Positions 214 through 44,075 of a stretch of 64,000 nt of DNA are shown piece after piece. A program made the position numbers and the translations under genes. Each line of letters begins with the position of its first letter. Positions within the stretch are counted from its first letter, which is position 1. The notes beneath the pieces are model-generated. The model did no database searches, had not been told where the DNA came from, and saw nothing but the letters and a program-made list of their open reading frames with translations. This stretch comes from Patellaria atrata CBS 101060 (lineage: Eukaryota), in NCBI GenBank assembly GCA_010093705.1, contig MU006104.1, positions 556,992-620,991 of the forward strand, read 5' to 3'.

Positions 214-350
214 TGGCTACTGATCTCAGACACACGTAAAGGTACAGATCACGTCTGAGTGCTACCAACAGCCCTGGATAGCTAGGCAAAGCAGAACACC
301 GAAACGCCAGAACGCTTAAACGCCAAAGAATACTTCGTACGAAGCTCTGC

Positions 351-882: not shown

Positions 883-959
883 ACTATAGTCTTATTAGCC
901 TTCGTACGATAGGTTTAAGCTGAGTACTTACACTTTGAGTTACTAAAATCAAAGATTGA

Positions 960-1012
960 GAAGGAGAGAAGAAGAGAAGAAGAGAAATTCAAAAAAAAGA
1001 TGTATTTTATAC
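960..1012 (-). promoter_or_regulatory. Putative core promoter of the cargo gene (TATAAAA followed by a CT-rich tract)
   Basis: The minus strand reads TTTGTATAAAATA near 1016-1004, then a TTCTCTTCTC tract, upstream of the intron donor GTAAGT at 931. Confidence 0.5.
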
Positions 1013-1244
1013 AAATTGGCAGGTAGGCAGGTGGGCCAGTAGACAGGTGGACAGGCAGGCACGTAGGCACGCCCTCGTGCCTTCTATCTTAGAACAGCTA
1101 TAGATGTTATTCATAGCTATATAATCCCTTCGTACGAAGAGTATCTTTATTTTAATTAAATTTCTAAGAAAACGATAATATTTTAGTTGAATTCTAAAGA
1201 ATATTAAAAAATCTTAAAATGCCAAGAGTATTGTTAAGGTATTA

Positions 1245-1317
1245 TGATATTCGATACAATACCGATGAAATACCGAGAATACTAATACCTTATCGATACG
1301 GATCGTTGGCCACACTG
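1245..1317. repeat. Transposon subterminal repeats and terminal inverted repeat
   Basis: Clustered AATACC(G), AATACT and GATAC units at about 1250-1300, then the TIR-like GATCGTTGGCCACACTG at 1301-1317. The predicted 8-bp TSD is TCCACATC (1318-1325). Confidence 0.6.
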
Positions 1318-1397
1318 TCCACATCCGATGGCTTGTACCCGACACTTTAACAATACAGTACGGCGATTTTATACTCAAATAATTTGAAGCTTCTGTG

Positions 1398-4571: not shown

Positions 4572-7500
4572 ATGTCTTCCCTCAAGAAAGCACTCCACAA
4601 ACTCAAACCCCACCACAACAGCAACCCTGCCAGTGACGACGAGTCCGGGACGACTACGCTAGCATCACCCGCAACAGGATCTACCCCCACACTAGATTCT
4701 CCTCAAAGAGCCTCTTCTCCAAAACCTTCCCCTCGCAACAGTCACCAGTATTCGCGCAATAGTGGGACTTTCCCGCGACCAAATGGATCGGATTCACCTC
4801 GTGGTGGTCGCACCAGCAAGGACATCATCCGTAGCAGCGGCACTTTCGGACACCGCAGTCGCAATAGCCTTGGTTCTCGCAGCCCTATCCGTGGCCTTCG
4901 GGAGAAACTACATATTGGAGGAGATGATTCATCTGGATCCGAGGACCTCCCTCTCAACAGAGATGGGGAGCCCATGAGCAAGAATCAACAAAGGAAACAT
5001 GAGAGACAAGCTTCACGGGAAGCTAGAAGGAAGGAAGTTGAGGAGAAAGAGGCGGAATTTCTGAAATTTCGCCAGGAAGAAGAAGAGCGTGCTGCTCGGG
5101 AGGAACCGCCAGAAGCCAAAGCTTGCTATGGAATGTTACCCGTCAACCATTATGCTGGCGAGTGGACACATGCAGAGCGTACGATTCTACAGGGAATATC
5201 CGCGAAGGATGTTGGCAAAGAGCTGTTTTTCCGAGCTCGTATCCATCATCTCAGGAAACTTAGTTCTCACTTGGTCTTCTTTGTTTTTCGACAGCAAACT
5301 GTCACCATTCAGGGTGTCCTGCACGAACATGACAATATTTCACGCTGGATGATGTATTGGGCAGAACATCGAAATGTCGAGGATGTCGTCCTAGTCAAGG
5401 GTGTAGTTCAGGAGGCAAAATCCAAACAAGGCGAGGTCACTGGTGCCACAATCCACGACGTTGAGATTTCAGTTCATGAAATGCATGTCGAAGCATCAGT
5501 CACAGAACCGCTACCTTTTACGGTTGCAGAAGCTGAAATTACCCAACAGGAAGTAGATCGTGAGCAAGATACCCGTGTCAAAGTTTCCGATAGGACTAGA
5601 TGGCAAAACCGAGTTTTGGATCTCCGGACATCGGCTGCACAAGGGATATTCAGGGTCCAATCTGGTATTGGACACCTATTCCGGGAATACTTGGATACTC
5701 AAGGTTTTATTGAAATTCATACCCCGAAGCTTCAGGGAGGTGCCACCGAATCTGGCGCCAGCGTCTTCAAGATTGATTACTTTGGAAGAGGAGCATTCTT
5801 AGCTCAGAGTCCTCAATTAGCCAAACAAATGAGCATTGCTGCAGATTTTAAGAAGGTTTATGAGATCGGCGCTGTTTTCCGAGCAGAGAATAGCAACACT
5901 CATCGTCATTTGACCGAGTATACGGGCCTCGATCTGGAAATGGCCATAGACGAGCATTATCACGAAGTCTTGCGTACCCTAGACAACACATTCAAGTACA
6001 TCTTCGCTGGGATTTATAAGAAGTATAGAAATGAAATAGATGCTGTCAAGAAGCAGTTTCCCCATGAGGATTTAGTCTGGCTAGATGAGACGCCAAGAAT
6101 TCCATTCAAGGAAGCAGTTCAGATGCTGAACGAGACTGGCTGGACGGATGAGCATGGCAAACCACTACCGTTGAATGAGGATCTTGGCACAAGGGATGAG
6201 ATTCAACTTGGTAGAGTTATCAAAGAAAAGTACGGAACGGATTACTACATCCTAGACAAATTTCCAACCTCTGCTCGACCTTTCTACACTATGCCTGATC
6301 CGAACGATCCGGAATACACAAACTCCTTCGATATCTTTCTACGAGGTCAGGAAATTCTGAGCGGTGGCCAGCGTATTCATGACACCAAGACGCTGCTTTG
6401 TAAGATGGAAAGGATGAAGGTTGACCCTATGTCCATGGAAGAATACATCAACGGCTTCCAGTGGGGTGCACCGCCTCATGGAGGTGGTGGTATTGGTTTA
6501 GAGCGTATGCTCATGCTTCTCCTACAACTGGGTGATATCAGACATGGTTCCATGTACCCGAGAGATCCCAAGAGCTTACCCGCCCGACCAAAAGTCACAC
6601 AACTACGGCACCCAGAAGCTAGCACAATGCATCCGCCATGGGAGAACCAGGACCGTGCCGCAGCAGGGATCGACTTCCAACCTATTGAGAAGCTTATTGC
6701 CAACTATGGTGATGCCTCTAACACCTCCTGGCTCGAGCCGCGTACTCAGATCTGGCGTGATGAGTACACTGGCGCTGCCATTGGTTACGTACCTCAAGAT
6801 GGCTTCGCTATTACTGTCGGTGACCCTCTCTGCCATAAGAGCCAGTATCTGAAGACCATCACTGGTTACCTCCGATACGTCAAGAAGGAGCGTAATCTTA
6901 AACCCCTCTGGCTCCTCGTCGGAGCAGACGTTGAGGAAGTTCTAGCAACCAAGTTCAACTGGCGCACGTTCTCCGTCGTGGCAGAGCAGCGCCTAAACCC
7001 AGCCAACAACCCGGCACTTTCGGATCAGGATATCCAGCGCAAGATCCGCCATGCAGAGCGTGAAGGCGTTAAGCTCCACGATATCCCGCTCGGCACTCCA
7101 GTTCCCAAAGAAGTGCGAGACAAAGTCGACGCGCGGCTCAAGGACTGGCTCGCAAACCGTAAGGGCAAGCAAGTCCATCTCACAGACCTGCATCCGTGGC
7201 AAGATATGGAGCACCGTCAGTACCACTACGCCATCGACTCCTCTGGTACCGTCGCGTCCCTGGTTGTCATGGCGCAGCTCTCTCCCGAGCACGGCTGGCA
7301 AGTCAAGTACAGTCTCGACTTCCCCGGTGCTCCAAGCGGTACCATCGAGATGATTGTTACTCACGCCCTGAAGGTTGTCGCCCAAGGCGGCGCTACCAAT
7401 GTCACGTTCGGTGGTGGTGCGAGCAACAAGTTCACCGTAGGGCATAACTTGAAGGGCGCCAAGGTCAAGGTGCTCAGCAAGGCATATCACGCTATTGCCA

Positions 7501-20844: not shown

Positions 20845-21101
20845 TTTGATGTTTGCAGATTGTATTCCAGCTTGGGAGGTGCCTGTTGTCTCTACTCTAA
20901 TCGTAACCGTCTGAATATAAAGTTCCTGAATAAGCAAGCGCCAAGCCTTATGAATCGACTACATTGAGGCAACTCCCCTCAAGTTTCCATCACCTATTCA
21001 CTTTCCGATACAAGTCGATCTCATCCCTTATGCGATCCATTAATTTAACATTCTCTTAAAATTTCATCTCGTAATCGCGCGACCTCATCGCAGACGTTAC
21101 G

Positions 21102-24100
21102 ATGTCGGACGGTATGGATAATCTCACCCCAATCCCGCAAAAACTAACCGCGACATCCACAGCCGACTTTGAACGAATAAAGCGCCTACAGCAAGAGCGT
21201 AACGCCCAGAAAGGTCTCAAAAGCTTTGATACGGCTGCCAAAGCAACTAACTCAGCAAAGGCTTCCCTCACCGAAAACTTCGATACCGCTGTCTACGGTC
21301 GCGATGGCGATGATAAATTTGCTGGATATAATAAATCCATCGCAGTCAATGGTGGTCCAGATGACGACGACGACCATGAGATGGGGGATTTTGACGATAC
21401 TAGACGGTTAGTTGGGCAATATACCGCCTCCCGAGCGCAAATAGATGAGTTTGCCAACACTGGTCGGGATGATGATATGATTACGAGTCGGGAAAAGCAA
21501 GCTCAGATCGCCTCCCGGGAGTCGGATTACCAAAAACGACGATTTGACCGGGGACCACTCACACCTACCCGAGCCGATCCTTTTGCCGAAAACGTTCAGA
21601 ATGGCACGCGTTACCGTGACACGATGGCTAGTCGTGAGCTGGAAAGAGAAGAGGCACGTGTGCAAAAGCTTATCGCAGATAAACAGACCAACGGCGAGTT
21701 AACACACAAGGAGCATAAACCTACGCTGAAAGAAGATACGAGTGATAAGGAAAACGCTCAAGCCGGCTCTACCGTGGATGCAGCGAGTGGAGCAGGTAGA
21801 AAACGAAAGCAGCGTTGGGATATTCCAGCGGCGGATAGTACTCCAACTGAGGATACAACGAAGAAGCGTTCTCGCTGGGATGTTACGGCTGCCCCTGACG
21901 AGGAGGCTGCCCCATCACGGCGGTCACGCTGGGATATGGCACCTGCGGTAGGTGGAGAGACTCCACGAGTCGCTCAAGGTCTAGCTACTCCAGCGCATCC
22001 ATCTCAAGCAGGAGTGGTTTCCTTCGGGACGGACGTATCAGCTCGTAACGCGCCACTATCTGACGAGGATTTAGACTTCCTTCTTCCTGGTGAAAAGGAG
22101 GGATACAAGATTCTCGAACCTCCACCCGGTTACGAACCTTTGCGAGTTAGTGTTCGTAGAACGGTACCCACACCCTCAGCGGCAGCAGGAGCTAGTGGAT
22201 ATGGAGGCTTCATGATGCAAGAGCCTGAAACCATACAGGCATTGGGAAAACAACTTCCTACTAATATCCCCGGTGTAGGAGAATTGCCATTTTTCAAACC
22301 GGAGGATATGACGTATTTTGGCAAACTTTTTGATGGTGCAGACGAAAATGATCTCAGCGTTGAAGAGCTCAAGGAACGAAAGATAGCTAGATTATTGCTG
22401 AAAGTCAAGAATGGTACCCCCTCTCAGAGGAAGAGCTCCCTCAGATCTCTTACAGATAGTGCGAAAGCTTTTGGCGCTGGCCCCCTCTTCAATCAAATTT
22501 TACCCCTACTCATGGAGAAGTCCCTAGAAGATCAAGAACGTCATTTGCTAGTCAAGGTCATCGATCGTATCTTGTGGAAGCTCTCCGAGGATGTTAGGCC
22601 TTATGTGCATCGTATCCTTGTTGTTATCGAGCCGCTTCTCATTGATCAGGATTATTATGCTCGCGTTGAAGGTCGAGAAATTATCTCGAATCTCGCCAAA
22701 GCTGCCGGTCTAGCAACTATGATTAGTACAATGAGGCCCGAGATAGATCACGCCGATGAATACGTCAGGAACACAACTGCTAGAGCTTTTGCAGTCGTTG
22801 CTTCAGCCCTAGGCATTTCCTCCCTACTTCCTTTCTTGCGAGCTGTTTGCCGAAGCAAAAAGTCATGGCATGCTCGTCACACCGGTGTCAAGATCGTTCA
22901 GCAGATTGCAATTCTGGTAGGAGCTGCATGCTTGCCTAATCTACCAGCTCTAATCGACTGTATCGCCGCTAACCTCTCAGATGAACAAGCAAAAGTTCGA
23001 ACAGTGACGAGTTTAGCGATAGCCGCCCTCGCGGAAGCTTGTAGTCCATATGGCATTGAAAGTTTCGATCCTATTCTCAATCCGCTGTGGACTGGCGCTA
23101 GAAAGCAGAGAGGTAAAGGTCTGGCTGGCTATCTCAAAGCAATCGGCTATATCATTCCTTTGATGGACGAAGAGTATGCGAATTACTACACAAGTCAGAT
23201 TATGGAGATTGTTATCCGAGAGTATGCTTCAGCGGATGAGGAAATGAAGCGAATATGCTGTCAGGTCACCATAAGTATCAACAGAGCAAACGGCATTACT
23301 CCGATGTACCTGAGAGAACACGTCGTGGATGAGTTTTTCAAGGCTTTCTGGGTGAAAAGAACTGCCCTTGATCGACGAATCCTTCGGTCTGTTGTAGACA
23401 CGACTATCGATCTTGCACAAAAGGTTGGTGGAGCGGAGATTGTGGAGCGCCTCTGGCCTCACCTCAAGGAGGAGAACGAGCCTTATCGAAAGATGACCGT
23501 CGAGACCATCGAAAAAATTATCGCTAGTCTTGGGACTGCGGACTTCGGTGAGCGTCTTGAAGAACATCTTATCGATGGTATGCTTTTCGCGTTCCAGGAA
23601 CAAACTGTTGAAGATCCCGTCCTTCTTAACGGATTCGGCACCTTAGTCAATGCGCTAGGGGAACGCATGAAGCCCTACTTCCCCCAAGTCGTGTCTACTA
23701 TGTTGTTCAGACTGGGTCACCGAACACCTGTTTGCCGTCAACAGAGTGCTGACCTTATAAGCCGCACGGTGAAGACTCTAGCAAGGTGTGGAGAGGACGA
23801 TCTTGTGATCAAACTCGGCCAGGTCCTCTATGAGTATCTTGGAGAAGAGTATCCTGAGGTTCTAGGCTCCATTCTTGGTGCACTACGATCCATTGTTGCT
23901 TGCGTCAGGATTGACCAGATGCAACCACCCATTAAAGATCTCCTACTCCGAGTTGCTCCAATTCTCCGCAATCGGCATGAGAAGGTACAAGAAAATGCTA
24001 TTGATCTTGTCGGCCGTATTGCTGAGTTTGCTCCCACCGCTGTAGGCAGTAAGGAAATGGTACGGATAGGTTGGGAGATGACGGAGATGTTGAAGGCACA

Positions 24101-24856
24101 TAAAAAGGGTATTCGGCGCGCAGCCAATAACACCTTCGGCTACATCGCTAAAGCGATCGGTCCATCGGACGTGCTTGCTGTTTTGCTATCACAGTTACGT
24201 GTATCAGAACGTCAGAGCCGTGTATGTGCTGCTGTGGCTATTGCTATCGTTGCAGAGGCTTGCGGACCTTTCTCAACTCTACCTGTTCTAATGAACGAGT
24301 ATAGAACACCGGAATTGAACGTCAGGTTTGTACACCCCCAAGGACCATAGACTAAGAAAGTAATGCTAACTCTGTTATCAGGACTGGAACTCTCAAAGCG
24401 CTCTCGTTCTTAACAGAGTACATCGGGGAGCTGTCAAAGGATTATGTCTACGCCCTGATTCCACTTCTTGAAGACGCTCTCACCGACCGAGACCAAGTGC
24501 ATCGTCAATCCAGCGCCAATATTATATCCCATCTAGGCACTACATTAGCCGGTTTAGGTTGCGAAGATGCTATGGTACATTTACTTTCCCTATTATGGCC
24601 TAACATCTTCGAAACCAGCCCTCACGTCATTGACCGCGTCATTGATGCAATTAACGGTATTAGACAGAGTGTCGGGACAGGTATCATCATGAACTACACG
24701 TTGGCAGGCCTTTTCTCTCCTGCTCGAAAGGTTAGGCAACCGTATCACCGCATCTACAACCTAATGTATGTGCAAAGTGCAGATTCTATGATTCCTTATT
24801 ATCCAGAGCTTGGGGAGGAATTCTACGCAAGGCCGGAATTGGATGTTGTTATATAA
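21102..24856 (+). CDS. SF3B1: U2 snRNP splicing factor SF3B1/Hsh155 (divergent), 2 exons
   Basis: RWD ULM motifs, [30 protein letters not shown] and [10 protein letters not shown]. Intron 24326-24381. Confidence 0.95.
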
Positions 24857-30886: not shown

Positions 30887-31780
30887 TCATGCCAGTTCGA
30901 ATTCCCCTCCGATGGTACTGCTGCCCCCGGCAGCGCTTTCTACGAGGATTCTCGTATCGACGACGTTCCCCTCGTCGTTCATGTAGATTGCGCAGAGCTT
31001 CTCCACGCCAACGATGGGTTGGTAAACGTATTCGAAGACCTTGTATTCCTCGCCGCTGATTTCGACCGTGTGGTTGAACCCGTTCGGAGTCATATCGTTG
31101 AGGTACGATCCGATTGTCCTCTGGCCCGAGACGGTTCCATCATTGTCAAGGAATTGCTCGATAATACTACCGTCGGAGTCCAAGATCCTATTTGTGTGGG
31201 TTTGACCGCTATAGTCGTTGACTGAATAGAGGATGTTGTGCACCATGGCAAATGAAAGAGGGATGCCTCTACCCTCAAGATTTGCGGTGTCCTCGTTACT
31301 GCTTCCACCGTCCAAAACACCTCCGACGGCATCGGTGATGTTTTCGATTCCTTGTCCTAGGGTCACCAGGATGGGATTAAGATCGATGGAATCGAGAACA
31401 CTGTCAATCATCTTGACGAGATTCGCTAATCTGGCCTCTAGAGTGACAAAGGCAGTAACATTCTGGATAATCAACGAAACACGATCGACGTGGGCGTCCA
31501 CACCGGCGTTGAACTTCAGTAGGTTCAATACTTGCGCGTCTACGTTGATTTTGGCGCTCAGGTTTGCGACGAGAATGCTGATTTCGCCGACGTGGACTGA
31601 GGCATTGAGGTAAACGTCGGGTTCTGTGTACATCGTCTCGTTCGAATTTGTGTTCGCAGTCTCGTAGATCACCGAGTCCGGGTCCCCATCAGAGGTGAGA
31701 CGATACCCAACATATCCTTCTTGCGCATTGATGAAAACTGCCAGATATAAAAAGAAGAACGTAAATGTTTGGAAAATCAT
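30887..31780 (-). CDS. Secreted uncharacterised beta-rich protein A (paralog of 32224-33174)
   Basis: 297-aa intronless ORF with a signal peptide and the domain PDVYLNASVHVGEISILVANLSAKIN...DSIDLNPIL. Confidence 0.85.
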   Translation of the reverse strand: MIFQTFTFFFLYLAVFINAQEGYVGYRLTSDGDPDSVIYETANTNSNETMYTEPDVYLNASVHVGEISILVANLSAKINVDAQVLNLLKFNAGVDAHVDRVSLIIQNVTAFVTLEARLANLVKMIDSVLDSIDLNPILVTLGQGIENITDAVGGVLDGGSSNEDTANLEGRGIPLSFAMVHNILYSVNDYSGQTHTNRILDSDGSIIEQFLDNDGTVSGQRTIGSYLNDMTPNGFNHTVEISGEEYKVFEYVYQPIVGVEKLCAIYMNDEGNVVDTRILVESAAGGSSTIGGEFELA

Positions 31781-32223
31781 GGTGACGATGATGGACTTGA
31801 AAAAAGAGGGGACGTCTTGATCAGGGCGAGACGACGCGCAAATGAGAGAATGTCGAAGTAAAGGTGCGTCTGAAGAGTAGAAAATAAGATGAGCGTAAGT
31901 TAAGACAAGGAATTGGATCTTGATGAATGATGATGGTTAGACTGGGTGCAAGCGAGGGCAGGGCTCAACATGAAACCGAAAGCGATCATAGCATGAACGC
32001 GAACCCCTGAGAAACAGGGCCTTACGTGGTATTTGCAATCCTCGTACGGCCAGCATTTATTTTAGCCATTCCTACACTAAAATAATAAAATTGCAATCCC
32101 GACATTGACAATATTGGGATCGCGTAACTTACCACGATCATCTTTCGTGAGGGTAGCACTTTTAAGCTGTCACTCCGTCTGTCGTTCCTTTTCCCTTGTG
32201 TACTACCACTCTCTCCTGCGAAA

Positions 32224-33174
32224 ATGTTGTCGAAACAGTTTCTACACGCTCTTTTTGCCTGTATCTTTCTTTTGACGTTCATTTCACAAGTTCTCGCCCA
32301 GGAATCGACAGCTGCGGCGACAACAGAAGAAGCCCCACAAACCACAGCTGCTCCATCTTCAGCAGCTGTAACTTCGGCCGTGCCCCTTACAAGCGGTGCC
32401 AGCACTGCTGCTCTTCCCAGCAGTGATAATCCACCAACTACCACCAGAAGTTCCAATTTCGACCCTTCAGCTCCTCCAGATGTTCTGCTCGACGTTCCAG
32501 AGCTGTCCGTCGGCCGAATTGAGCTAAACGTAGACAACCTAGTAGCGGATATCAATTTGAACGCGGAGGTAGCAAATCTGGTCAAAATCAACGCCGGAGT
32601 AGCCGTATCGGTCCAGAAGGTGAACATCACCATCGCTGATGTTTCCGCTGAGCTTGAGCTCAGAGTCCGGCTCGGCCATCTTGTGGATATCGTTCAACGG
32701 GTGTTTGAATCCCTCGATCTAAACCCTCTCCTCATTAGCGCCATCGAAGGTGTGACCGATCTTGTTGGAGGAATTGTGGGAGTGGTAGATGGACTGCTGG
32801 GGTCCATCACACAGGACGGTACAACGTTGAACTTCATCATCGACAATCTCGGAAACATCGTCCAATCAGTCGTCGGTGCCGGAGGCCAGACAGTCAACAC
32901 CATCGTCGGTGATTATTTAACCAACATGACGGAGACGGGTATAGTGAAGCAGCTAGGGAATGGATTGGTTCAGAAGCAATTCTCCTACCCCCCCCTCAAC
33001 TCTCTGGTCGACATTGTTTTCAATTCGTTAGGTCAAGTCGTACAAGCAACGGTGGCCAAGCCGAGCGGAGGAGGGCCGAGTTCAGGTGGTCCTACTGCTA
33101 CTCGAACAGCGACGGGATCACCGTCTCCATCAACGGCGGCATCAACAACTCCAGCAAGCCCGATAAGGCGATAA
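32224..33174 (+). CDS. Secreted uncharacterised beta-rich protein B (paralog of 30887-31780)
   Basis: 316-aa intronless ORF with a signal peptide, an S/T/A linker and the domain PDVLLDVPELSVGRIELNVDNLVADIN...ESLDLNPLL. Confidence 0.85.
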   Translation: MLSKQFLHALFACIFLLTFISQVLAQESTAAATTEEAPQTTAAPSSAAVTSAVPLTSGASTAALPSSDNPPTTTRSSNFDPSAPPDVLLDVPELSVGRIELNVDNLVADINLNAEVANLVKINAGVAVSVQKVNITIADVSAELELRVRLGHLVDIVQRVFESLDLNPLLISAIEGVTDLVGGIVGVVDGLLGSITQDGTTLNFIIDNLGNIVQSVVGAGGQTVNTIVGDYLTNMTETGIVKQLGNGLVQKQFSYPPLNSLVDIVFNSLGQVVQATVAKPSGGGPSSGGPTATRTATGSPSPSTAASTTPASPIRR

Positions 33175-34107: not shown

Positions 34108-37100
34108 TTACCGATTCTTTTTATGCTTCCGAGACTTCCCTTCCGTTGCCGCATTCGCTTCCTTCAGGGCTTCCTCTACAGCTTCCCCAACTTTTCGTTT
34201 TCCATGCCCTGGCTTGCTGGATTTGATACTGACGGTCATACTCTTTGCTCCAGTCTTTTGCGCTGCCCGAATCTGTCTTTCAGCTTCCTGCCAAGCCGCG
34301 CCTCCATCCGCTATCTTGTACCTACTCTCAAGTATTAGCCTACAAATATTAAGTGGGATGACATGCGCCTACCGATCGAGAGGTAATGCATCAATCATAT
34401 TCCTCATTCTCTCCCTCTCAGCTTTCTGCACCTCGTCTCCAGCCTCAGCTAGTTCCTGTCCTAGCTCCTGTGCAAGAGGTTTAAATCTTTGATCGTCTTT
34501 CATGTTCTCATTCTTTCCGTGTACTCCATTTTCGTCTCTTTCCTCGGGAGCTTGGGGTAGATCTGCCGCCGCCTCCTTCTCTAAAAGCTGACGGAAATGT
34601 GCAGTCACCTTTCGGATAACCTTAACGAACATTGCAAGCAGTTGAGATGAACCCAGACCCAGTTCTTTCTCCAGCTCTTCGAGGACTTTGCGTTGGAGAC
34701 CAATAGCCAGGAGTAGGGAAGTCTGAACTCCTGAGAGATTGATTGATGACTTTAATCGTCCGGTAAAGTACAGTCGTGCGATCTCAGGAAGCATGTCCAA
34801 AATGACATGATAGTCCAACATGTTATTTGCATAACTATCCAGCCGTTTCAAATCGAAAGGTGAAAAAAACGAGTCGAGCTCGGATTTCGTTAGTTGGATG
34901 GCTGAACCTGATGTATCTAACTTTATTCCTTGAGACGCAGACTCGTCAATGCTTAGAGCAGTGATCGAAGGAAAAGAGCGAAACTGATAAGAAAGTAAAG
35001 AAAGGAAGCGACGGTGAAAATCCTTAGCGAAGACTCCAAGCCAGCTAGGATCAGCATCGGAGACGTCTAATGTGCGAAGCATTACGCAAGTATGCTCCCC
35101 GGTAAGATCATTCGGTGTCTGGCGCAAATATACTGGAACAAATGAAGATCGCTTCCAGAATTTATGGAGAGTGGAAGTTAAACCATAACTAACGCCAACA
35201 TAATCTAGATGGGGAGCTTTTCGTTCCGAGAGTCGAGCAAATAATGGTGGCATGCTGTTGATGTCGCGAATCTTGATGTTATCTTGGAGTAGAGTAGATT
35301 TTTCAAGCTCCTGGTCTGTAACTCTAACCATCTCCTCTGCCGCCTTGGGCTCTTCTTCTGATAAACTGGCGAACTTCCCCTCGTAGAAGTCGATAAGTAA
35401 ATTGAGGGCTCGAGAACCGTAACCCATGCCAATGTAATCTGGATTGGTAGCTATTCGTACGATCCTTGCGCCAGATAGGCCAGCAAACTCCTCATCTTGG
35501 AACTGCTGGCTCACAAGCCAGGGTATTAGATCACCCCCTGCTCTCTGACCACGACTCAAGCTATTGAGAACACTTTCCTTACTGATCTGTCCTTCCATTG
35601 CAACTTGAATGACACAAAGTGGCTCTGGTAATCGGTCCTCGGATACAGGGGCGACGAGGGCGAAAAGTTGATGAGCTGGCGCATCGGACATCAACTGGAG
35701 GTCATTAGGGGAGTTTTTGTAATGGCTGGCCACATACAGAGCCATCATATGTTGTAAGAACTTTTCAGGGACTGGATGAAAGGAAAAGAGAGCATCTCTA
35801 TTGACATGTAGAAGTTCACAATCTGAAGGATGGGGACAGCCTCTAGTGCCCATTTTGGATCGTGGTAATGTAGCTTCAAGGCAGAGAAGGGTGTTCAACC
35901 ACTTTTCAACTGCGTCACCAGGTGCGTAGCGAATAGGCTCCGAGAGTGTGATTTCTCTAAGGGTACGACCACCAACGGATTTCTCTGAAGTATCTTTCGA
36001 AATCTTGCTTGAGGATCGATCGATCTCTGCTTCATCAGCACCTGGATTTTTACCGCCGCCCCGCGATTGTTGGCGTAATTGCTGGATTAGTTTCAAGGAT
36101 AATGACCTTCCGGTACCTTCGTAGCCGTTAATCGTTGATGCCATAAATACCAAATAAGGTCCCATCAATTTTTTGACTAGAGGGAGCGGTATCGCTGCAG
36201 CTTCGTCTATCACTAAGAGTTCTGCCTGACCTAGAGTATAAGCGTCCTGCGGTTGTATATATTGAATGGTTTGCCTATGTTGTCGATGAACGTTTACTCT
36301 GACAATTGCTTTATGGAACTCAGGGTTTGTAGACTGAATGATTGAGTAATCGACGTGATCCATGTAATTTAATGCGTCGAAGCCTTTGAAGATAAACTCA
36401 AACAGTGTTTTCAAATTTTCTGGGTTAGGAGATGTTATGAAGATGTTACTGTATCCATGAGCAACCGCTGCTGCGATAGCGACACCGAGTGTCGCCGACT
36501 TTCCACGTCCACGAGCAGCAGTTAGCGTAACGGTACCTTGTAGAGTTTTCTCAGCGATAGCATCGACGACAGTGAGCAAAGCTTTTGCTTGATCAACAGT
36601 TTTCGCTAATGTTATCAATGACCCAATAGGTTGTGAATCTGCAAGACTTTCTTTGATCTCTTCAAGTTCTCTAGCTTTGGGTGTTTTACCAACCAAGTCG
36701 GGATCTGGGGGAGGTAATTGTCGTACCGACTTCCCGCCCGATATGGGGAGGACATTGAGTTCATCATCCACAACTAGACAAGACTCACAACTTCCCAAGG
36801 ATAGGATAAAACGCTCGTTGAACCGTGCTGTAACATCTCCATGAGCTTCTGTCCTATACCTTGAGTGGATATCCATCGATAACGTATACAACTGCTTTAG
36901 GCTGTTCATGCCCTTCAGTAACAGCAATACCAAACCGCCACCCTCTACGGTTTCTATTGTTCTTGCCAATAAATTGGGAGTAATAGCCTCAAAGTCCTGA
37001 AGTATACACATGCCGTACGTATTTCCTAAGATCTTTTCCGTTTCCTTGTAGTAGACGTATCGAATATTTTGGGTGGAGACAAAGAGTTCGAAGGGATCTT

Positions 37101-37546
37101 CAGCGTCGACATCACGGATCCCACGCTTGATTTCTTTTTTTATTTTTGCTTCTCGCTTCTTTCGATGGCTACAAGGCAGTTAGAAATCCCTTATTGCTCA
37201 GAGCTGAAGCACAACCAACCTAGTAAACCCGAGAAGTTTATTTTTATATGCCCACAACACAGACTTGTTCAGTTTCACGTCTACGTTAAGAAGGATATGA
37301 TATAGGTTGACAATGACGTCTTTCTGTCGGTCCCCAACAATTACGAAGAAGCTCCGTTTCTTTTCCTAAGTCACCAAGATTGATCAGTCCGCTGTTGAGG
37401 CAAGGACGGAGCAACGAACTTGAGCCCCATTTCGTATTAATGCCGGAATACGGGAATCTCTACAGTGCAGTATTAGTTCGTAAATCTCATATGCGTAGAC
37501 TCAATCGAAATGCGCGCAATTGAGCATACATTGCTTTCTTGACCAT
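34108..37546 (-). CDS. KRE33: RNA cytidine acetyltransferase Kre33/NAT10 (5 exons)
   Basis: MVKKAIDSRIPALIRNG, LQDFEAITPNLLARTIETVEGGG, TAARGRGKSA, DEAAAIP, HYKNSPNDLQ and the GNAT motif RIATNPDYIGMGYG. Confidence 0.97.
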
Positions 37547-38277: not shown

Positions 38278-41200
38278 ATGGAGCGTTCAAAGTTACTCTC
38301 ATTGAGGTATTGTACTACATATGATTTTTTGCGCTGGCACCATTCCCTTACTGAAACTGTTTTAGTGGCCTAATTCTAGGCATTTGGTACGTCTCGACGA
38401 CTTATGAGACCTCTGCTACCTTTGAATACCCTTTACATTCTTTCGGCGTCATTCTATTATTTTGTGGCCTTGCAATACTGCTTACAGATAAACTGATACC
38501 CGTGGCCAAATCTGAGCTTTCTAGAGAATCTTATCTTTCTATAACACAAGAAGATCTAGATGGCTCAGTCGATCGTGCACACCTTCCAACTGATGGAATT
38601 CAAGGAAATACTGGGGCTTCAGAACAACAACTCCCTCTGCGGCGTCTAAGAGGTCGCATGATTTTGGTTCTACTGGCGGTTCTCTTGGCAGTATTAGGTA
38701 TTCGACTAGAATTGCTTCGTAGAATCATTGAGAATGTGCAGTGCTCTGATTTCAGTCCAGAGGTACGTATGTCACCTATACTAACATGTAGGATCGTATA
38801 CTAACAGAGCAAGCCATTTCTTCCCCTTTATGTTGCAGTCCATAACTACTGGCGTATTCAGAAGTATGCCTCGAACGACGCAGGAAATAAAGAAGATTCC
38901 TCCAAGGCGACCCACGATGGTGTATACACTCCGCTCCATCACAGAAGATTCAGCTCCGTTCTCATAACCTTTCTTCTCGGATGTAGTTGTGTTGTATCCT
39001 CTGCCCATGCGTCCGCGCCCACATCTACATACATTTGTGCACATTCATTACCTTATTCTCATATGATACCACTTTTTCAGTTACTTGGATTCCTATTCGA
39101 TTGCGTTATGCTCAGCATCCTTATTCGGTTTCTTGAACATACATCAGAAACGGGATCTCGAGGGTTCGAAAAGTTTTTTACACTTATAGGTTGGTTTTTG
39201 CTGGTATGTCCTGTCTGTCCCGCTTGAAACATAGACTTATCTGACTCTACGATCAGCTTGCTTCACTCATTCATATTATTATAGGCGTCACCGTATCTAT
39301 GTTAGCTTCGGTTGATCATATGTGGATATCCACTTTTCCGACTCCGTATCTCTTTCATCTGATCAAAATTTCTCTTGGCATTTCTGTTACCGTCGTATGT
39401 GCTCTGCGCTCGGTAAGTTGTTGCTCTTTAGGTCGCTTTCCGATGCGAATGTTCTACTAACTGATTAGTTGCAACACGTAAGTCTTATGACAACCTCAGT
39501 CATCATTATCTTTGTCGTTGCCTACTGTAGAGATGTAGTAATCGCATGGAGAAATTCTTTACCATATCCACCCGCTCCGGACACCGCTGCATTACTGGCT
39601 ATTCTCTTCATGGTGTTAATATTTGGAATGTACTTTCTTGCCGATACTGTAGCAGATCCGCGACACTACCCCTTTTCACGACCAACATTCCGTGCGATCC
39701 CGCGCTGGTTCATCCTCTCGCTTATACTACTATGTCTAAGTCGTGCGGGGCTTTGGCTCCTACGCCATGATGAAGTAAGGTCACATCCAATTGACATCTT
39801 GATTCACGAAGGCTTGGAACAGCATCAAACATGGTCGAAACAAGCTACGGCCTCGCAATCCTTAGGGGAGGCCGTTATGGCGTATGAAAAACGTTATGGC
39901 CGAAGTCCGCCGCCGAACTTCGATCACTGGTATGATTTTGCAAAAGCGCGGAGTTCTATAGTCATAGATGACTTTGATAATATCGAGAACGATCTTTTAC
40001 CCTTCTGGGCGTTAACTCCGGCTGTAGTTCGCCAAAGAACTTGGAATGTCATAGCTAATCCCGCACACTTTGTAGGAGGTATCTTGATTCGCGATGGTAA
40101 AGCGCAGATCAGTACAAACGTTGTACCTACACACAGATGGATGTTGGAAGGGGTGATACGGATGATCGATCAATTCTCCACCTGGCTTCCTGACATGGAT
40201 CTTGGCTTCAATCTCAACGATGAGTGCCGAGTAGCAGTACCATTTGAGGTCATTGAACCTCTGAAAGCTGAAGCTCAACGGCAGAAAACGGCGATTAGAG
40301 ATATTAAAGCTAAGACTTTCAGTCCAAACAGAGCGGATGTATGGTCAACCCTTCCTACTCAAGCTCCTCACGAGAAATTCTTCGAAGACGCCTCCGGACG
40401 CAAATCTTTCGCTAGCTGGGGTTCCATTGGGTGTGCTCCTAAATCACGCGCACGAACTGAAAGTTGGTGGAATAAGAAACATATCTGTACCGAATGCACG
40501 AAACCCCATTCTCTGGGCCAATTCGTCTCGAATTGGACTCTCGCGGCGGATATTTGTCACCAGCCGGATATTGCAGATCTCCATGGTTTCTATATCTCCC
40601 CAGCTTCTTTTAAAACCACGCGACATCTTCTACCTGTCTTCAGTCAGAGTAGAGTTTCGACCTACAATGACATTCGCTACCCTTCAGCCTGGAATTACAT
40701 GGACAAAGTCGCATATGCGCCAAGCGACGAATACCCTGATGTCCCCTATGAAAATAAAACGAACACCCTCTTTTGGCGCGGAGTTACTTCTGAGGGAGTG
40801 TCCTCAGGCAGGGGAGCTTGGAGAGGCATGGCACGGCAACGCTTCGTCCATGAAGCAACTAATTTAACATCACCACGGACTATGCTATTCTCATATACAA
40901 CTTCAATCAACCGGACCTTCATTTATAGACAGGTTGAGCCCTCAGATGTGGGTAATATTCTAAGCACAGATGTTCGCTTGACGGAAATAGCACGGTGTGG
41001 TCAACAAGATTGCTTTGATCAAAAGCGTGAATTTGGACTTGGGAACAAAACAGACTTTCAAGAGCACTGGAATTATCGTTATTTGTACGACGGCGATGGT
41101 GCTGGATTTAGCGGTCGTTTCCTACCATTTCTTCAGTCAGGGAGTCTACCCTTCAAGACAGCACTATTTCGTGAGTGGTATGAAGGAAGGTTAACGGCGT

Positions 41201-41466
41201 GGGTACATTTTGTACCCCTAGACTTGAGACTACATGGGCTGTGGAGCACACTTGCTTACTTTTCTGGAGTTGGTGATCGACTCGGCAATTCCCAGGTTTC
41301 CACAGAGGGAAAGGAAAAGGAAGGCCAGCTCATCGCAAACGCAGGAAGAGAATGGGCAGCAAAAGTTCTTCGGAAAGAAGACATGGAGATCTACTTCTTC
41401 CGACTCCTTCTAGAGTGGGGACGGTTAACTGACGATCGTAGGGATGAGATTGGATATAAGTTGTAA
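38278..41466 (+). CDS. GT90 (CAP10/Cxt1-like) glycosyltransferase with a multi-TM N-terminus
   Basis: HPIDILI, YGRSPPPNFDHWY, LFWRG, DGDGAGFSGRFLPFL and LRKEDMEIYFFRLLLEW. Upstream exons are joined by GT-AG introns (the first is 38307-38365); the exact start is inferred. Confidence 0.85.
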
Positions 41467-41933
41467 TCGATTCATATGTATTTAGTTTGGGGTTAAATAC
41501 TGTCCCCCTTCTGTAGATTTTGGATAGAGCTGGAGCTTTCATGGATATACCCGTAATATAGACTCTTTTTCAGAGGCATGTATTTTCCATTAAAGCTGAA
41601 AATCTTCCCTAGTCCAAAGGTATTTCTATCCATCTTCCCCGCCAGATTTCTCGTCGGCCTCAGTTCGGTTCGAAGATCTAAACATAAGATATCGGATATG
41701 TGCACGGGTCTCTAATTGGGCAGCACGTGTGCGAACTGTGACAGGGAACGCTAGCGGGAAAATCGCGGGCGAAGCTCAATTTTCGCCCACTTCTAACCTC
41801 GAGCCCACGCTATCACTTATTTCTTTAGACATCTTCTTTTCCACCTTGTTGAGATTTTGCTCCAATAATACAGCAAACTAAGCTGTACCTACAATTAGTG
41901 ATTTGCTTTGAACCCTCATGTTTGATACTTCAA

Positions 41934-44075
41934 ATGGTTTCCATCGCTGCTGCGCCAGGCGCGTTTTCTAGCGATATTCCGAACCATCATCTTGCCTCAA
42001 AGCGCAAGTTCGCTGGTGAAGACGTTCACGATGACTTTCTACCCTCAAGTCTAGCCAAACGCCACAAAGTCGCTTTTGCCCCGGATGTTCAGATCCGTAT
42101 CATGGACGACTATAACAATAAACCGGAGATTCTGATACGAGAAGAGGTTCGTCGTGGCATAGATAACCATATTCTCGGCGATAGTGCAGGATATGATCAG
42201 CTCAAGCACTTATTCACCGCGGAACCTGGCACCGAAGAAGCTCCAAGCACGCCTCTGCTTCAAAAATATGTTTCAGCACTCATCAATCATATCAGCATGC
42301 TCAAAAAGAATTGTTCAAGTCTTGTCCACGCCATCTTAGACTGTGACTGGTTAGGAAGAGACGAACGATTTGTGGCCTTATATACCCGGTTGTTAGAAAG
42401 TCTCTTGTCTGCTCACGGAGGTTATGCTACCTCTGTTCTCGAAATGGTTGTTACCAACTTTGTTGATTGTAGGTCGCGTCACTCGCGCAGATACATTTCT
42501 CGTGCTTACACCTTGGCAGTACCGCCGTCTACTGGACAGTTACCGGGCAATGTACCGGTTAATAAATCGGAACTACAAGCTAGAGCTCATAGGGTCCTCA
42601 AATCCCTACTCACTCGAATTCCGTCTGCTAGTTCATCGCTTGCTCCTATTCTCTCCGCTACATTTCCGTTTTCTACCGATTCTACTCGCGCCCACATCGA
42701 ATATACTCAAAACCTACTTTTCCTTACTACCTACACCCCTGAATTGAAAGGCCAAATACTAGCTCTGATCATCGAAAAGCTGGTTAAGATTGACGTACAG
42801 ATCCAGGTTGATATGGAGGATCTCGAGGACGAATTGGAAGAGAATTTGGTTGGAGATATAGTTGAAGGGCATGGGCGCTTTCACGAAGAAGATGAGGAAG
42901 GTGATCTTAGCGAAGTTGAATCTGACACGCCAAGTAGAGGGAGTGTTGCGGACGAGGAAGAGCGATTAAACCATCTTAAACAATCGATCGTCAAGCTAGA
43001 CACCATCATGGATCTACTTTTCAATTACTACCACCCCATCTTCTCCAAGGGCACGCAATCAGAGAGTATCGAGGCTTTCGAACACCTTCAGCTCCAATTC
43101 TCTTCGACCATTCTTCCGACTTACCGTTCTCGGCATACACAATTTCTACTTTTCCACTTCGGACAGTCCTCACCAGTTCTTATCGAGAGATTTGTTGGCT
43201 CATGTGCGAAATTGTCCTTCGATAAAAACCAGCCTCATTTCCTTCGGCTCTCGGCTGCTGCATACTTAGCCAGCTTTATCGCACGTGGCGCGCACGTATC
43301 CCGCACCGTTGTAAACGACGTTTTTGACGTACTCGGAAATCACCTCGATAACCTTCGCCGTACTCATGAACCCTCATGTGTTGGTCCAGACCTCCAACGA
43401 TACGGGGCGTACTATGCTCTGGCACAGGCCTTACTTTACATTTTCTGTTTTCGATGGCGCGACCTCGTCATCAGTGAAGAATACGACGATGAAGATGATG
43501 AAGACATCCTTTTGGAAGGCAGAGATTTAAGTTGGGCCCGCGGAATCAAGGACCTACTTACGCGCAACATCTACTCTAGACTCAATCCGCTCAAAATCTG
43601 CTCACCTGCCATTGTCACGCAGTTCGCTCGTTTTGCCCATCACCTTCGGTTTATGTATGTCTTTCCACTCATAGAGACGAACAAAAGAATTCGATTTTCG
43701 CGTTCAGTGATGTCGTCAGCTCGAATTAGTGGTATGGGGGAACGAGAGACATCCTTATCAACTAAGCGCGGTGACGATGCATTTCAGCTGGATGCCTACT
43801 TCCCTTTCGATCCTTACAGTTTACCTCGAAGCAGAAGGTGGCTTTCTAGCGATTATATTGAGTGGAAGAGCATACCTGGGCTTGACGATAGCAAGAATAA
43901 CGAAGATATAGATGAGGACGACGACGACGACGACGACGATGAGGACGATGATGATGATAGCGATTCCCCGACTAGTGTAGATGACAGCGAGTCTGACGAT
44001 GATGATAACGCCGAAGATGGAATGCTGTTGGCGCACTTCGACAGGACAAGCACCGACACCGAGGGTAGTCCATGA
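41934..44075 (+). CDS. RRN3: RNA polymerase I initiation factor Rrn3
   Basis: EKLVKIDVQIQ, ILPTYRSRHTQFLLF, AAAYLASFIARG, LNPLKICSP and LDAYFPFDPY, plus an acidic tail. Probable in-frame intron at 42469-42519. Confidence 0.93.
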   Translation: MVSIAAAPGAFSSDIPNHHLASKRKFAGEDVHDDFLPSSLAKRHKVAFAPDVQIRIMDDYNNKPEILIREEVRRGIDNHILGDSAGYDQLKHLFTAEPGTEEAPSTPLLQKYVSALINHISMLKKNCSSLVHAILDCDWLGRDERFVALYTRLLESLLSAHGGYATSVLEMVVTNFVDCRSRHSRRYISRAYTLAVPPSTGQLPGNVPVNKSELQARAHRVLKSLLTRIPSASSSLAPILSATFPFSTDSTRAHIEYTQNLLFLTTYTPELKGQILALIIEKLVKIDVQIQVDMEDLEDELEENLVGDIVEGHGRFHEEDEEGDLSEVESDTPSRGSVADEEERLNHLKQSIVKLDTIMDLLFNYYHPIFSKGTQSESIEAFEHLQLQFSSTILPTYRSRHTQFLLFHFGQSSPVLIERFVGSCAKLSFDKNQPHFLRLSAAAYLASFIARGAHVSRTVVNDVFDVLGNHLDNLRRTHEPSCVGPDLQRYGAYYALAQALLYIFCFRWRDLVISEEYDDEDDEDILLEGRDLSWARGIKDLLTRNIYSRLNPLKICSPAIVTQFARFAHHLRFMYVFPLIETNKRIRFSRSVMSSARISGMGERETSLSTKRGDDAFQLDAYFPFDPYSLPRSRRWLSSDYIEWKSIPGLDDSKNNEDIDEDDDDDDDDEDDDDDSDSPTSVDDSESDDDDNAEDGMLLAHFDRTSTDTEGSP

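Follow-up and report, generated by a model that had tools for sequence, protein, structure and literature searches.

We tentatively favour the view that A and B, two divergently transcribed genes of the ascomycete Patellaria atrata CBS 101060, are an ancient paralogous pair of secreted glycoproteins from a bacterial–fungal family without a described function, and that their products work together as a hetero-oligomer. The two genes are kept adjacent across filamentous ascomycetes, the head-to-head orientation being known from the present locus. Their features are listed below; coordinates refer to the window, that is, the whole stretch of 64,000 nucleotides of contig MU006104.1 that was analysed.

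30887..31780, minus strand: gene A, complete coding sequence with stop, 297 amino acids (P0001); family HMM match at E 2.3e-83
31721..31780, minus strand: A residues 1–20, signal-peptide-like hydrophobic N-terminus, with cleavage, by eye, near the junction of ..INAQ and EGY
31631..31723, minus strand: A residues 20–50, A-specific conserved Tyr-rich segment (GYxGYxL..GDPxSVxYETAxT)
31373..31621, minus strand: A residues 54–136, domain 1 (PDV...DLNP), two tandem repeats of ~33 residues, predicted to form a long beta hairpin plus helix
30926..31243, minus strand: A residues 180–285, domain 2, predicted eight-stranded sheet of YD-like beta hairpins (pLDDT 89–97), aligning with domain 2 of B
31781..32223, no strand: divergent intergenic region of 443 bp, presumed shared promoter, delimited by the ORF coordinates
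32224..33174, plus strand: gene B, complete coding sequence with stop, 316 amino acids (P0002); family HMM match at E 1.7e-74
32224..32298, plus strand: B residues 1–25, signal-peptide-like N-terminus, with cleavage, by eye, between ..VLAQ and EST
32299..32472, plus strand: B residues 26–83, low-complexity, mucin-like linker rich in Ser/Thr/Pro/Ala
32476..32727, plus strand: B residues 85–168, domain 1 (PDVLLDVP...DLNP), from the AlphaFold2 model and the internal repeat
32791..33063, plus strand: B residues 190–280, domain 2, eight predicted beta strands in YD-like hairpins (pLDDT 93–98), aligning with domain 2 of A
33064..33171, plus strand: B residues 281–316, C-terminal tail rich in Gly/Ser/Thr/Pro, read by eye

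Each gene is a single, intact ATG-to-stop reading frame. Orthologs of A measure 292–303 residues and those of B about 285–340, and they cover 88–100% of the queries, so that neither gene needs an intron. The original prediction of two intronless genes with signal peptides, 443 bp apart, is thus borne out by the ORF coordinates and by the hydrophobic N-termini of the orthologs. The intergenic region holds one 9-nt direct repeat (TTGCAATCC at 32033–32041 and again at 32091–32099) and weak inverted repeats, nothing else, and none of these is interpretable. The pair is surrounded by the housekeeping genes SF3B1, NAT10 and RRN3, its local GC content is similar to that of the flanking DNA, and a search with the family HMM revealed no third copy in the window.

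The two domains are related between A and B. BLASTP aligns the proteins with 40% identity over 113 residues (E 8e-20), restricted to domain 1, while comparison of the two ortholog alignments by hhalign extends over 211 columns and both domains (probability 99.95%, E 5.6e-38). The latter alignment recovers the residue pairings from which two-domain paralogy had originally been proposed, namely ILDSDGSIIEQ with IIDNLGNIVQS, IGSYLNDMT with VGDYLTNMT, YVYQP with FSYPP and MNDEGNVV with FNSLGQVV. On these profile comparisons A and B are true two-domain paralogs, with a similarity far above chance.

Domain 1 comprises about 85 residues, in which two repeats of ~33 residues (hhalign probability 93.4%, E 2.5e-7) are predicted to fold into a helix-capped beta hairpin with about 30 residues per strand. 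The AlphaFold2 model of the B core places strands at residues 87–116 and 120–148 and helices at 150–166 and 169–179, with block-mean pLDDT values of 77–92 over the two strands and 47–70 over the helices. Mean pLDDT is 84.1 for the whole core, with a pTM of only 0.49, so that the placement of hairpin, helices and domain 2 relative to each other is uncertain. For full-length A modelled with 79 close orthologs, the pLDDT of domain 1 stayed below 50; a confident domain 1 was obtained only from a diverse 132-row alignment, and for B. The profile of these diverse relatives displays alternating stretches of positions that, over about 120–129 diverse sequences, are at least 95% V/L/I/F/M/W. Model and profile therefore both agree with the long hydrophobic beta strands followed by a helix that had been read from the letters. 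The hydrophobic positions undergo six register shifts, however, and domain 1 may consequently not form one flat amphipathic hairpin. A short linker rich in Gly and Val leads to domain 2, which is modelled as a compact eight-stranded sheet made of YD-like hairpins.

Both proteins look secretory. A signal-like N-terminus was scored as at least seven hydrophobic residues in a 10-residue window within residues 1–35 of orthologs whose sequence begins with M. By this measure, which judges signal peptides by hydrophobicity alone and leaves cleavage sites to the eye, the A orthologs qualify in 78 of 79 cases and those of B in 73 of 77, in keeping with the secretion suggested at the outset. Conserved sequons lie in domain 1 of A (N59 in 77/79 orthologs, N73 in 79/79 and N107 in 68/79) and in domain 1 (N134) and domain 2 (N234) of B, the latter two each in 78/78. 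A and B each combine the hydrophobic N-terminus and the conserved N-x-S/T sites by which secreted N-glycoproteins are predicted, and these features support secretion of the two. Cysteines are nearly absent from the mature parts (median 0; maximum 1 among A orthologs and 2 among B orthologs), and on this median count cysteine-rich small secreted proteins, such as hydrophobins, cerato-platanins and typical effectors, were ruled out.

The accessory parts are specific to each protein. Residues 26–80 have a median Ser/Thr/Pro/Ala fraction of 0.67 in 78 B orthologs as compared with 0.36 in A, and the low-complexity Pfam entry ‘New_glue’ is matched by 28 of the 78; judging from this composition, the B linker is likely an O-glycosylated stalk. 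The C-terminal tail of B lacks a hydrophobic end and hence, by eye, an obvious GPI signal. In A, the Tyr-rich segment has Y23, Y26 and T41 invariant among the 79 orthologs and Q20, G22, G25, L28, D33, Y39 and T44 conserved in at least 90% of them; the monomer model gives residues 20–50 a pLDDT of 35–44.

The family is widespread. At E ≤ 1e-3 the searches collect 985 relatives for A and no fewer than 1003 for B, and the named matches belong to Pezizomycetes, Orbiliomycetes, Dothideomycetes, Leotiomycetes, Lecanoromycetes, Sordariomycetes and Eurotiomycetes. With roughly a thousand relatives per gene in seven classes of Pezizomycotina, the patchy distribution that had been expected does not hold. 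Linkage was counted over the 13 species named among the best 120 matches of both A and B. In 12 of them the two genes lie on contigs of equal length, and in five of the 12 their locus tags are consecutive (Orbilia ellipsospora TWF694_007867/68, Diplodia seriata SLS55_008519/20, Stictis urceolatum MMC23_003439/40, Xylographa trunciseda MMC11_003101/02 and Aaosphaeria arxii 419048/49). For the thirteenth, Botryosphaeria dothidea, several assemblies are pooled and no comparison is possible. Nine more contig sizes are common to both lists; a tenth, of 1801 bp, could not accommodate the two genes. Conserved pairing, proposed as a check of the original prediction, is accordingly found, in the sense of adjacency and not of orientation. 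Since the linkage is present in the early-branching Orbiliomycetes and Pezizomycetes, duplication and linkage are older than the radiation of these classes.

Divergent pairs of this kind have a familiar precedent in the histone genes, where H2A–H2B and H3–H4 pairs encode hetero-dimer partners. Like A and B, these are related head-to-head genes with a short common intergenic region that have long been retained. For A and B, co-regulation and heterodimerisation are proposals, and their products, unlike the histones, are extracellular. As a counterpoint to A–B assembly, an old inverted duplication could also stay linked through a common regulatory region, without physical contact between the products.

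Relatives of domain 1 extend into bacteria. The actinobacterial proteins mentioned in the original prediction do exist; they are related to the distant match P0337, are annotated as hypothetical and come from Nonomuraea, Streptomyces, Saccharopolyspora, Actinomadura and Nocardiopsis. These CsmB-like or apolipoprotein-like repeat proteins have the same domain 1 (PDVYLDVP...IDRNP), which is 26–35% identical to B where the sequences align; they differ in having neither signal peptide nor domain 2, and carry instead Gly/Ala/Val repeats labelled PF01442 and PF27499. Their function is also not described. The full two-domain secreted form is present in Acidobacteriota, where the family gene, Z, encodes the same layout of signal peptide, low-complexity linker, domain 1, linker and domain 2; all the Z proteins are hypothetical or lack annotation. 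In contrast to the fungal genes, Z is single-copy, its products are not glycoproteins, and it stands in an operon with the genes of X (72 of 80 loci) and Y (74 of 80), both of them small and secreted. The fungal window contains no homologs of X and Y, the marginal match of Y (E 0.051) falling on gene B itself. When Y is compared with domain 1 by hhalign, the probability is 68% (E 4.8e-5); the domain-1-like gene neighbours of bacteria arose independently of the fungal pair. Altogether 519 bacterial loci were confirmed, and the gene is single-copy in 79 of the 80 loci kept, a tandem pair occurring at one Thermoanaerobaculia locus. As the bacterial gene is normally single-copy, the pairing is a fungal feature; as a further counterpoint to assembly, the bacterial singletons imply that the family has no inherent need of a second paralog.

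In an unrooted tree, fungal A (SH-aLRT 100), fungal B and six further representatives group together, and a branch with a support of 95 splits off all bacterial rows. This topology fits a single origin of the fungal copies followed by duplication. The family has many bacterial members, and the possible bacterial origin suggested at first is plausible for the fungal genes, the direction of transfer not being given by an unrooted tree.

Searches in databases and the literature returned little. In Pfam, A matched no family and B three, all sub-threshold and unrelated, and neither protein matched NCBIfam; for domain 1, no family was found in Pfam among A, B, their 79 and 78 orthologs and 55 distant representatives, or in NCBIfam among 13 proteins. 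A sequence search of the PDB retrieved for A only designed Kelch-like SAKe proteins (residues 169–200, best E 4.2e-6) and for B no match. Foldseek returned no match at E ≤ 1e-3, either for the A model against the PDB or for the B model against the PDB and BFVD. Matches in the protein atlas were ascomycete and bacterial clusters only, none of them named, and the label ‘Cell wall protein’ is a single UniRef name on one Diplodia ortholog. The literature yielded nothing on PF27998, PF27499 or six ortholog locus tags, and for descriptive terms nothing relevant in the titles and opening lines of abstracts; PMC6916707, in the part consulted, concerns a Tremellales-derived cluster unrelated to A and B. 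The absence of a known function, on which the original prediction depended, therefore holds for Pfam, NCBIfam and the literature on family identifiers, locus tags and descriptive terms. The family, with about a thousand sequence clusters, is without a name, a Pfam model in the copy searched, a solved structure or a match to a solved fold. Its novelty lies in its distance from described families and not in a demonstrated new mechanism.

The closest described likeness of domain 2 is to the YD or RHS repeats (PF05593, TIGR01643) of proteins such as Bacillus WapA, the Rhs proteins and teneurins, whose short beta hairpins, like those modelled for domain 2, stand in arrays and carry the motif D-x-x-G-x-[IV]-[IV]. 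Among the distant relatives, the domain 2 of three of 55 exceeds the 22-bit gathering cut-off of RHS_repeat (P0297 with 26.8, P0325 with 26.4 and P0306 with 23.5 bits), two more scoring below it, and one of 13 proteins (P0297) matches TIGR01643 with 22 bits against a cut-off of 15.8. An acidobacterial protein of the family (L005) reaches only 14.9 bits for RHS_repeat. Neither A nor B matches an RHS or YD family in Pfam or NCBIfam, and none is listed for their 79 and 78 orthologs at E ≤ 1. YD and RHS proteins moreover contain dozens of hairpins, as compared with about three to four in A and B; the fungal proteins are devoid of a shell, toxin tip or Rhs core, and Rhs proteins have no counterpart of domain 1.

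How the pair might operate can be sketched. The common 443-bp divergent promoter would drive A and B in matched amounts. Both proteins would enter the secretory pathway and become N-glycosylated, B being additionally O-glycosylated on its Ser/Thr-rich stalks. Because the hairpin model of domain 1 exposes hydrophobic stripes, a partner surface is needed, and it is through these stripes that A–B hetero-oligomers would assemble at the hyphal wall or surface. Domain 2 may bind wall polysaccharide or another extracellular ligand. The ancestor of the hetero-oligomer would be a homo-oligomer of bacteria. A complex prediction of A (residues 50–290) with B (residues 80–282), run without alignments or controls, gave two scores of 0.01, the mark being 0.34, and carries no weight in either direction.

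Alternatively, A and B may be independent, subfunctionalised wall or matrix glycoproteins that act alone or as homo-oligomers and have remained adjacent through the common regulatory DNA of an old inverted duplication, a reading that we consider possible but rather unlikely. It would accord with the single-copy state of the bacterial relatives in 79 of 80 loci, with the strong divergence of the two proteins (40% identity in domain 1), with the private conserved sequons of each and with their different accessory parts, a Tyr-rich N-terminal segment in A and Ser/Thr-rich stalks at both ends of B. However, fungal gene order erodes quickly, and adjacency in all 12 comparable species from distant classes is more than the usual inertia; the similar numbers of relatives of A and B also speak against this reading.

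Two further readings assign the hydrophobic surfaces another task. It is improbable, in our judgement, that A and B use the domain 1 stripes or a domain 2 half-barrel to carry, bind or coat what is hydrophobic, be it molecules or surfaces (lipids, waxes, a rodlet layer, the air–water interface); this corresponds to the lipid-binding beta groove of the original prediction. One A ortholog, P0166, has the UniRef name ‘Lipid-binding serum glycoprot...’, and the domain 1 of actinobacteria is fused to Gly/Ala/Val 11-mer-like repeats that score as Apolipoprotein (sub-threshold; PF01442 in precomputed annotation) and as PF27499, the CsmB chlorosome envelope protein, both of which coat lipid surfaces; the fungal proteins, however, are without such an array. 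LolA lipoprotein carriers are the highest-probability Foldseek matches (0.99, E 0.04–0.09), but their TM score is only 0.25 and no match in the PDB or BFVD is significant at the threshold given above. DUF2140 is weakly matched by four of 78 B orthologs (best E 0.076). The BPI/LBP/CETP (TULIP) family was rejected, its Pfam model being matched by 0/79 A and 0/78 B orthologs at E ≤ 1 and no TULIP protein occurring among the Foldseek PDB matches listed. Less credible still is that A and B are the two components of a toxin, antimicrobial or forming beta-barrel pores, whose amphipathic hairpins would co-assemble into a membrane barrel as in bi-component leukocidins. Leukocidin-type toxins and lysenin do resemble A and B in the long hairpins with alternating hydrophobic residues, the former as two secreted paralogs, and the lysenin pore 5ec5_F appears among the Foldseek matches, although insignificantly (E 0.14, probability 0.09, TM 0.13). 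Neither the sequence search of the PDB nor Foldseek gives a significant match to these toxins, and the domain make-up of A and B is different. In addition, the hydrophobic pattern shifts register and extends along the whole of each ~30-residue strand, beyond a membrane-length stretch; invariant sequons lie within the hairpin (N73 and N107 of A, N134 of B); and the pair resides in a housekeeping region of the core genome, conserved alike in saprotrophs, lichen fungi and pathogens, which is unlike typical toxin genes.

Returning to the hetero-oligomer, it is tempting to speculate, as a long shot, that A and B co-polymerise, their domain 1 hairpins stacking in alternation into a glycoprotein fibre or sheet outside the cell, comparable to a functional amyloid or an S-layer, that would serve as a universal hyphal-surface scaffold of filamentous ascomycetes. 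The source of such a scaffold would be a module that soil bacteria secrete and that was acquired before Pezizomycotina radiated, the X–Y–Z operon building the ancestral version.

If A and B work together, they would belong to the core extracellular equipment of the largest group of filamentous fungi, to which pathogens of plants and animals, lichen fungi and industrial moulds all belong. The pair would also be a clean case in which a single-copy gene of bacteria became, in a eukaryote, a fixed unit of two genes. Domain 1 occurs in fungal secreted glycoproteins, in acidobacterial secreted proteins and in cytoplasmic-looking actinobacterial proteins with lipid-coat-like repeats; its partner surface, once worked out, would supply an annotation for well over a thousand proteins now labelled hypothetical.

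The ORF listing (standard code) reproduces exactly the coordinates, divergent layout and 443-bp spacer of the original prediction for the two genes, whose positions in the window are given here with those of their neighbours and of two segments discussed below.

Genes A and B, their segments and neighbouring genes
21075-24350, plus strand: SF3B1
30887..31780, minus strand: gene A, ORF of 297 aa (protein P0001)
31631-31723, within gene A: A-specific Tyr-rich segment, residues 20-50, directly after the signal peptide
31781..32223: intergenic stretch of 443 bp between the start codons of A and B, which point apart
32224..33174, plus strand: gene B, ORF of 316 aa (protein P0002)
32476-32727, within gene B: domain 1, with a repeat unit of ~33 residues (B 93-122 versus 127-156)
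34369-37179, minus strand: NAT10/Kre33
39469-41466, plus strand: GT90 glycosyltransferase
41853-44075, plus strand: RRN3

Neither gene needs an intron, since orthologs of similar length cover 88-100% of each query, as expected of the intronless genes originally proposed. The pair sits in a housekeeping region of the ordinary core genome of a filamentous ascomycete, as indicated by a GC content like that of the surroundings (0.465-0.469 around the pair, window range 0.411-0.516) and by the eukaryotic housekeeping neighbours. When the six-frame translation of the window was searched with a family HMM, only A and B were recovered and no third copy. The intergenic region contains the 9-mer TTGCAATCC twice (32033-32041 and 32091-32099, 58 bp apart); this is the sole direct repeat found there and may be due to chance.

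BLASTP aligned A and B with 40% identity over 113 residues of domain 1 (E 8e-20), and a profile–profile comparison of 79 A with 78 B orthologs extended the alignment through domain 1, the linker and domain 2 (probability 99.95%, E 5.6e-38, 211 columns), recovering every motif pairing on which the proposed two-domain paralogy had been based. At the sequence level, a similarity far beyond chance is thereby confirmed. The family is also widespread: at E<=1e-3, 985 relatives were found for A and at least 1003 for B, the latter being a lower bound because scoring was limited to the 8000 best candidates. Named matches came from Pezizomycetes, Orbiliomycetes, Lecanoromycetes, Eurotiomycetes, Sordariomycetes, Leotiomycetes and Dothideomycetes, one species per class having been looked up in the taxonomy. 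With about 1000 relatives each and seven Pezizomycotina classes among the named matches, the patchy distribution suggested earlier does not hold. The closest named relatives of both proteins are those of Ascobolus immersus (75% identity for B, 57% for A), and the atlas clusters nearest B are 100% eukaryotic, mostly Ascomycota. A separate case is P0123, an A-type protein of 449 aa annotated in the mucoromycote Bifiguratus adelaidae, which shares 56% identity with gene A and is encoded on a 21038-bp contig; its gene model is fused to a proline-racemase-like part (precomputed label PF05544), and it may represent ascomycete contamination, a mis-joined gene model or a transfer.

The pairing itself is conserved. 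Among the 13 species named in both lists of the top 120 matches, adjacency being read from the tables of matches, 12 carried A and B on contigs of identical length. Five of these have consecutive locus tags or protein numbers for the two genes: Orbilia ellipsospora (TWF694_007867/007868), Diplodia seriata (SLS55_008519/008520), Stictis urceolatum (MMC23_003439/003440), Xylographa trunciseda (MMC11_003101/003102) and Aaosphaeria arxii (419049/419048); the other seven bear JGI identifiers, which are non-positional. The thirteenth species, Botryosphaeria dothidea, is not comparable, 39 and 66 contigs being pooled from several assemblies. Besides the named species, ten further contig sizes were common to both lists, one of which (1801 bp) is too short for both genes and must reflect a coincidental or partial match. 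Since Orbiliomycetes and Pezizomycetes are among the linked cases, both the duplication and the adjacency are older than the divergence of the seven classes. Of the earlier interpretation, paralogy, secretion, conserved pairing and bacterial kinship are retained and patchiness is given up.

Judged from the searches made, the A/B family is far from any described family. Pfam gave nothing for A and sub-threshold noise for B, and no Pfam family recurred meaningfully at E<=1 among the 79 A and 78 B orthologs, the commonest match, 'New_glue' (28 of 78 B orthologs), reflecting the Ser/Thr-rich linker. NCBIfam matched neither A nor B, nor domain 1 in 11 bacterial relatives, and a sequence search of the PDB returned designed Kelch-like proteins alone for A (169-200) and none for B. 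Foldseek at E<=1e-3 found nothing in the PDB for either model and nothing in BFVD for that of B, whose best E-value was 2.6e-2; LolA carriers reached a Foldseek probability of 0.99 against the B model, but a TM of just 0.25. The sole link found to a described family is the likeness of domain 2 to RHS/YD repeats: it passes the RHS_repeat cut-off in 3 of 55 distant representatives, and one distant representative passes TIGR01643 (YD_repeat). A and B themselves pass neither cut-off, so that membership of the Rhs or YD families was set aside and domain 2 is termed YD-like. Named relatives are all labelled 'hypothetical' or 'uncharacterized' with two exceptions in UniRef, 'Cell wall protein' (Diplodia) and 'Lipid-binding serum glycoprot...' (Echria), and the precomputed label PF27998 appears on one of the 120 top B matches listed (P0078). 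No publication was found for PF27998, PF27499 or six ortholog locus tags, and none of the papers listed dealt with the family, as judged by title and opening lines of the abstract; PMC6916707 proved unrelated.

An AlphaFold2 model of full-length A based on 79 close orthologs is confident in the eight-stranded domain 2 (residues ~180-285, pLDDT 89-97) but not in domain 1 (pLDDT <50). Domain 1 was better defined in a core model of B (residues 81-282) built on a 132-row alignment that included bacterial relatives (mean pLDDT 84.1, pTM 0.49). It comprises very long strands at 87-116 and 120-148 (means of 77-92 over 10-residue blocks) and helices at 150-166 and 169-179, followed by a poorly defined linker and an eight-stranded domain 2 (pLDDT 93-98). 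Domain 1 contains an internal tandem duplication, ELSVGRIELNVDNLVADINLNAEVANLVKI aligning to AVSVQKVNITIADVSAELELRVRLGHLVDI (hhalign probability 93.4%, E 2.5e-7), and in the model each repeat forms one strand of the long hairpin. In about 120-129 diverse sequences, V, L, I, F, M or W make up at least 95% at B positions 87, 89, 94, 96, 99, 101, 103, 106, 110, 112 and 116, and likewise at 119, 120, 122, 130, 133, 135, 137, 140, 146 and 150. Alanine is conserved at 108, 114 and 142, and the hydrophobic alternation undergoes six register shifts.

The first residues of both proteins form a hydrophobic stretch that ends in ..AQ, and the signal peptides originally proposed are matched by signal-like N-termini in 78 of 79 A and 73 of 77 B orthologs. 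Orthologs of both have a median of 0 cysteines, and B has a linker rich in Ser/Thr/Pro/Ala (median fraction 0.67 versus 0.36 in A). Sequons are strongly kept, in A at N47 (66/79 orthologs), N59 (77/79), N73 (79/79) and N107 (68/79), and in B at N134 and N234 (78/78 each). Several of them fall within the hairpin and occur in one paralog only, which suggests that each hairpin has a solvent-exposed, glycosylated face. The Tyr-rich segment of A, GYxGYxL..GDPxSVxYETAxT, is almost invariant in the 79 orthologs (Y23, Y26 and T41 invariant) and takes no defined structure in the monomer model (pLDDT 35-44); it could serve as a docking strand or as a site of cross-linking or processing.

A phmmer search with A against 1.84 billion cluster representatives yielded 805 matches at E<=1e-3, 167 at E<=1e-10 and 32 at E<=1e-30. 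The distant representatives comprise two bacterial-looking types. In the secreted two-domain type, a signal peptide and a low-complexity linker precede domain 1, which a further linker joins to domain 2. The other type, rich in Gly/Ala/Arg/Pro, lacks a signal peptide and has Gly/Ala/Val repeats after domain 1; it counts 693 relatives, hypothetical proteins from Nonomuraea, Streptomyces, Saccharopolyspora, Actinomadura and Nocardiopsis, which confirms the similar actinobacterial domains mentioned in the original prediction. In P0324, P0336, P0337, P0342, P0373, P0381, P0389 and further actinobacterial relatives, domain 2 is replaced by GxGAGxAVxDVG arrays. The actinobacterial repeats bear the precomputed labels PF01442 (Apolipoprotein) and PF27499 (atlas name: CsmB chlorosome envelope protein), which suggests that domain 1 works with lipid-surface-coating repeats in these organisms.

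When bacterial and archaeal genomes, one per species, were scanned with an alignment of 10 bacterial representatives, 519 of 579 pattern matches were confirmed. The best 80 of these loci are nearly all from Acidobacteriota (Pyrinomonadaceae, Blastocatellia), with one Armatimonadota and one Thermoanaerobaculia, and 79 of them contain a single family gene within +/-6 kb. The only two-copy locus, on a Thermoanaerobaculia MAG contig (L023), holds a tandem same-strand pair at 55-783 (+) and 796-1605 (+). In Acidobacteriota the family gene, Z, closes a compact unit of three genes; ahead of it on the same strand lie X (~200 aa, secreted-looking, 72/80 loci) and Y (about 125-140 aa, secreted-looking, 74/80 loci), with tight or overlapping spacing, as in two examples.

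Acidobacterial three-gene units
Locus L012: X 4819-5355, Y 5352-5711, Z 5713-6654
Locus L005: X 4531-5151, Y 5148-5576, Z 5794-6744

No Pfam family was recognised in X or Y. The X domain is fused C-terminally in two actinobacterial domain-1 proteins (P0381 239-318, P0373 199-281, E about 1e-14), and Y shows a weak, in-register likeness to domain 1 (hhalign probability 68%, E 4.8e-5, 83 columns). The 64-kb window contains no X homolog, and Y gave a marginal match on gene B alone. The A/B pair is thus not seen in bacteria, yet adjoining genes with domain-1-like parts have arisen there more than once. In a quick, unrooted maximum likelihood tree (75 rows, 259 columns, SH-aLRT support only), fungal A (support 100), fungal B and six further representatives lie together behind a branch of support 95, with all acidobacterial, actinobacterial (support 99) and other bacterial-looking rows on its other side. 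This topology fits a single eukaryotic origin followed by duplication. A bacterial source of the fungal family is plausible, since the family is broad in bacteria but confined, among the named matches, to one fungal subphylum.

What the data establish is a pair of secreted paralogs, ancient and linked, whose hairpin domain needs a partner. A hairpin this long, striped with hydrophobic residues, is probably unstable on its own. Herein lies the chief structural reason to expect assembly with a partner surface, be it another hairpin, a helix or a hydrophobic substrate. We tentatively prefer an A–B hetero-assembly, at somewhat less than an even chance. A and B would be co-expressed from the shared promoter, exported and glycosylated; they would then assemble through domain 1, in a manner descended from an ancestral homo-oligomer, and domain 2 would touch a ligand or the wall.

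Somewhat less probably, A and B are independent, subfunctionalised paralogs kept together by shared regulatory DNA. Binding of a hydrophobe or lipid we regard as improbable. A two-component pore former is the least probable reading, the paralog-private sequons within the hairpin arguing against a membrane-inserted barrel. The A/B family is a good candidate for experimental work.
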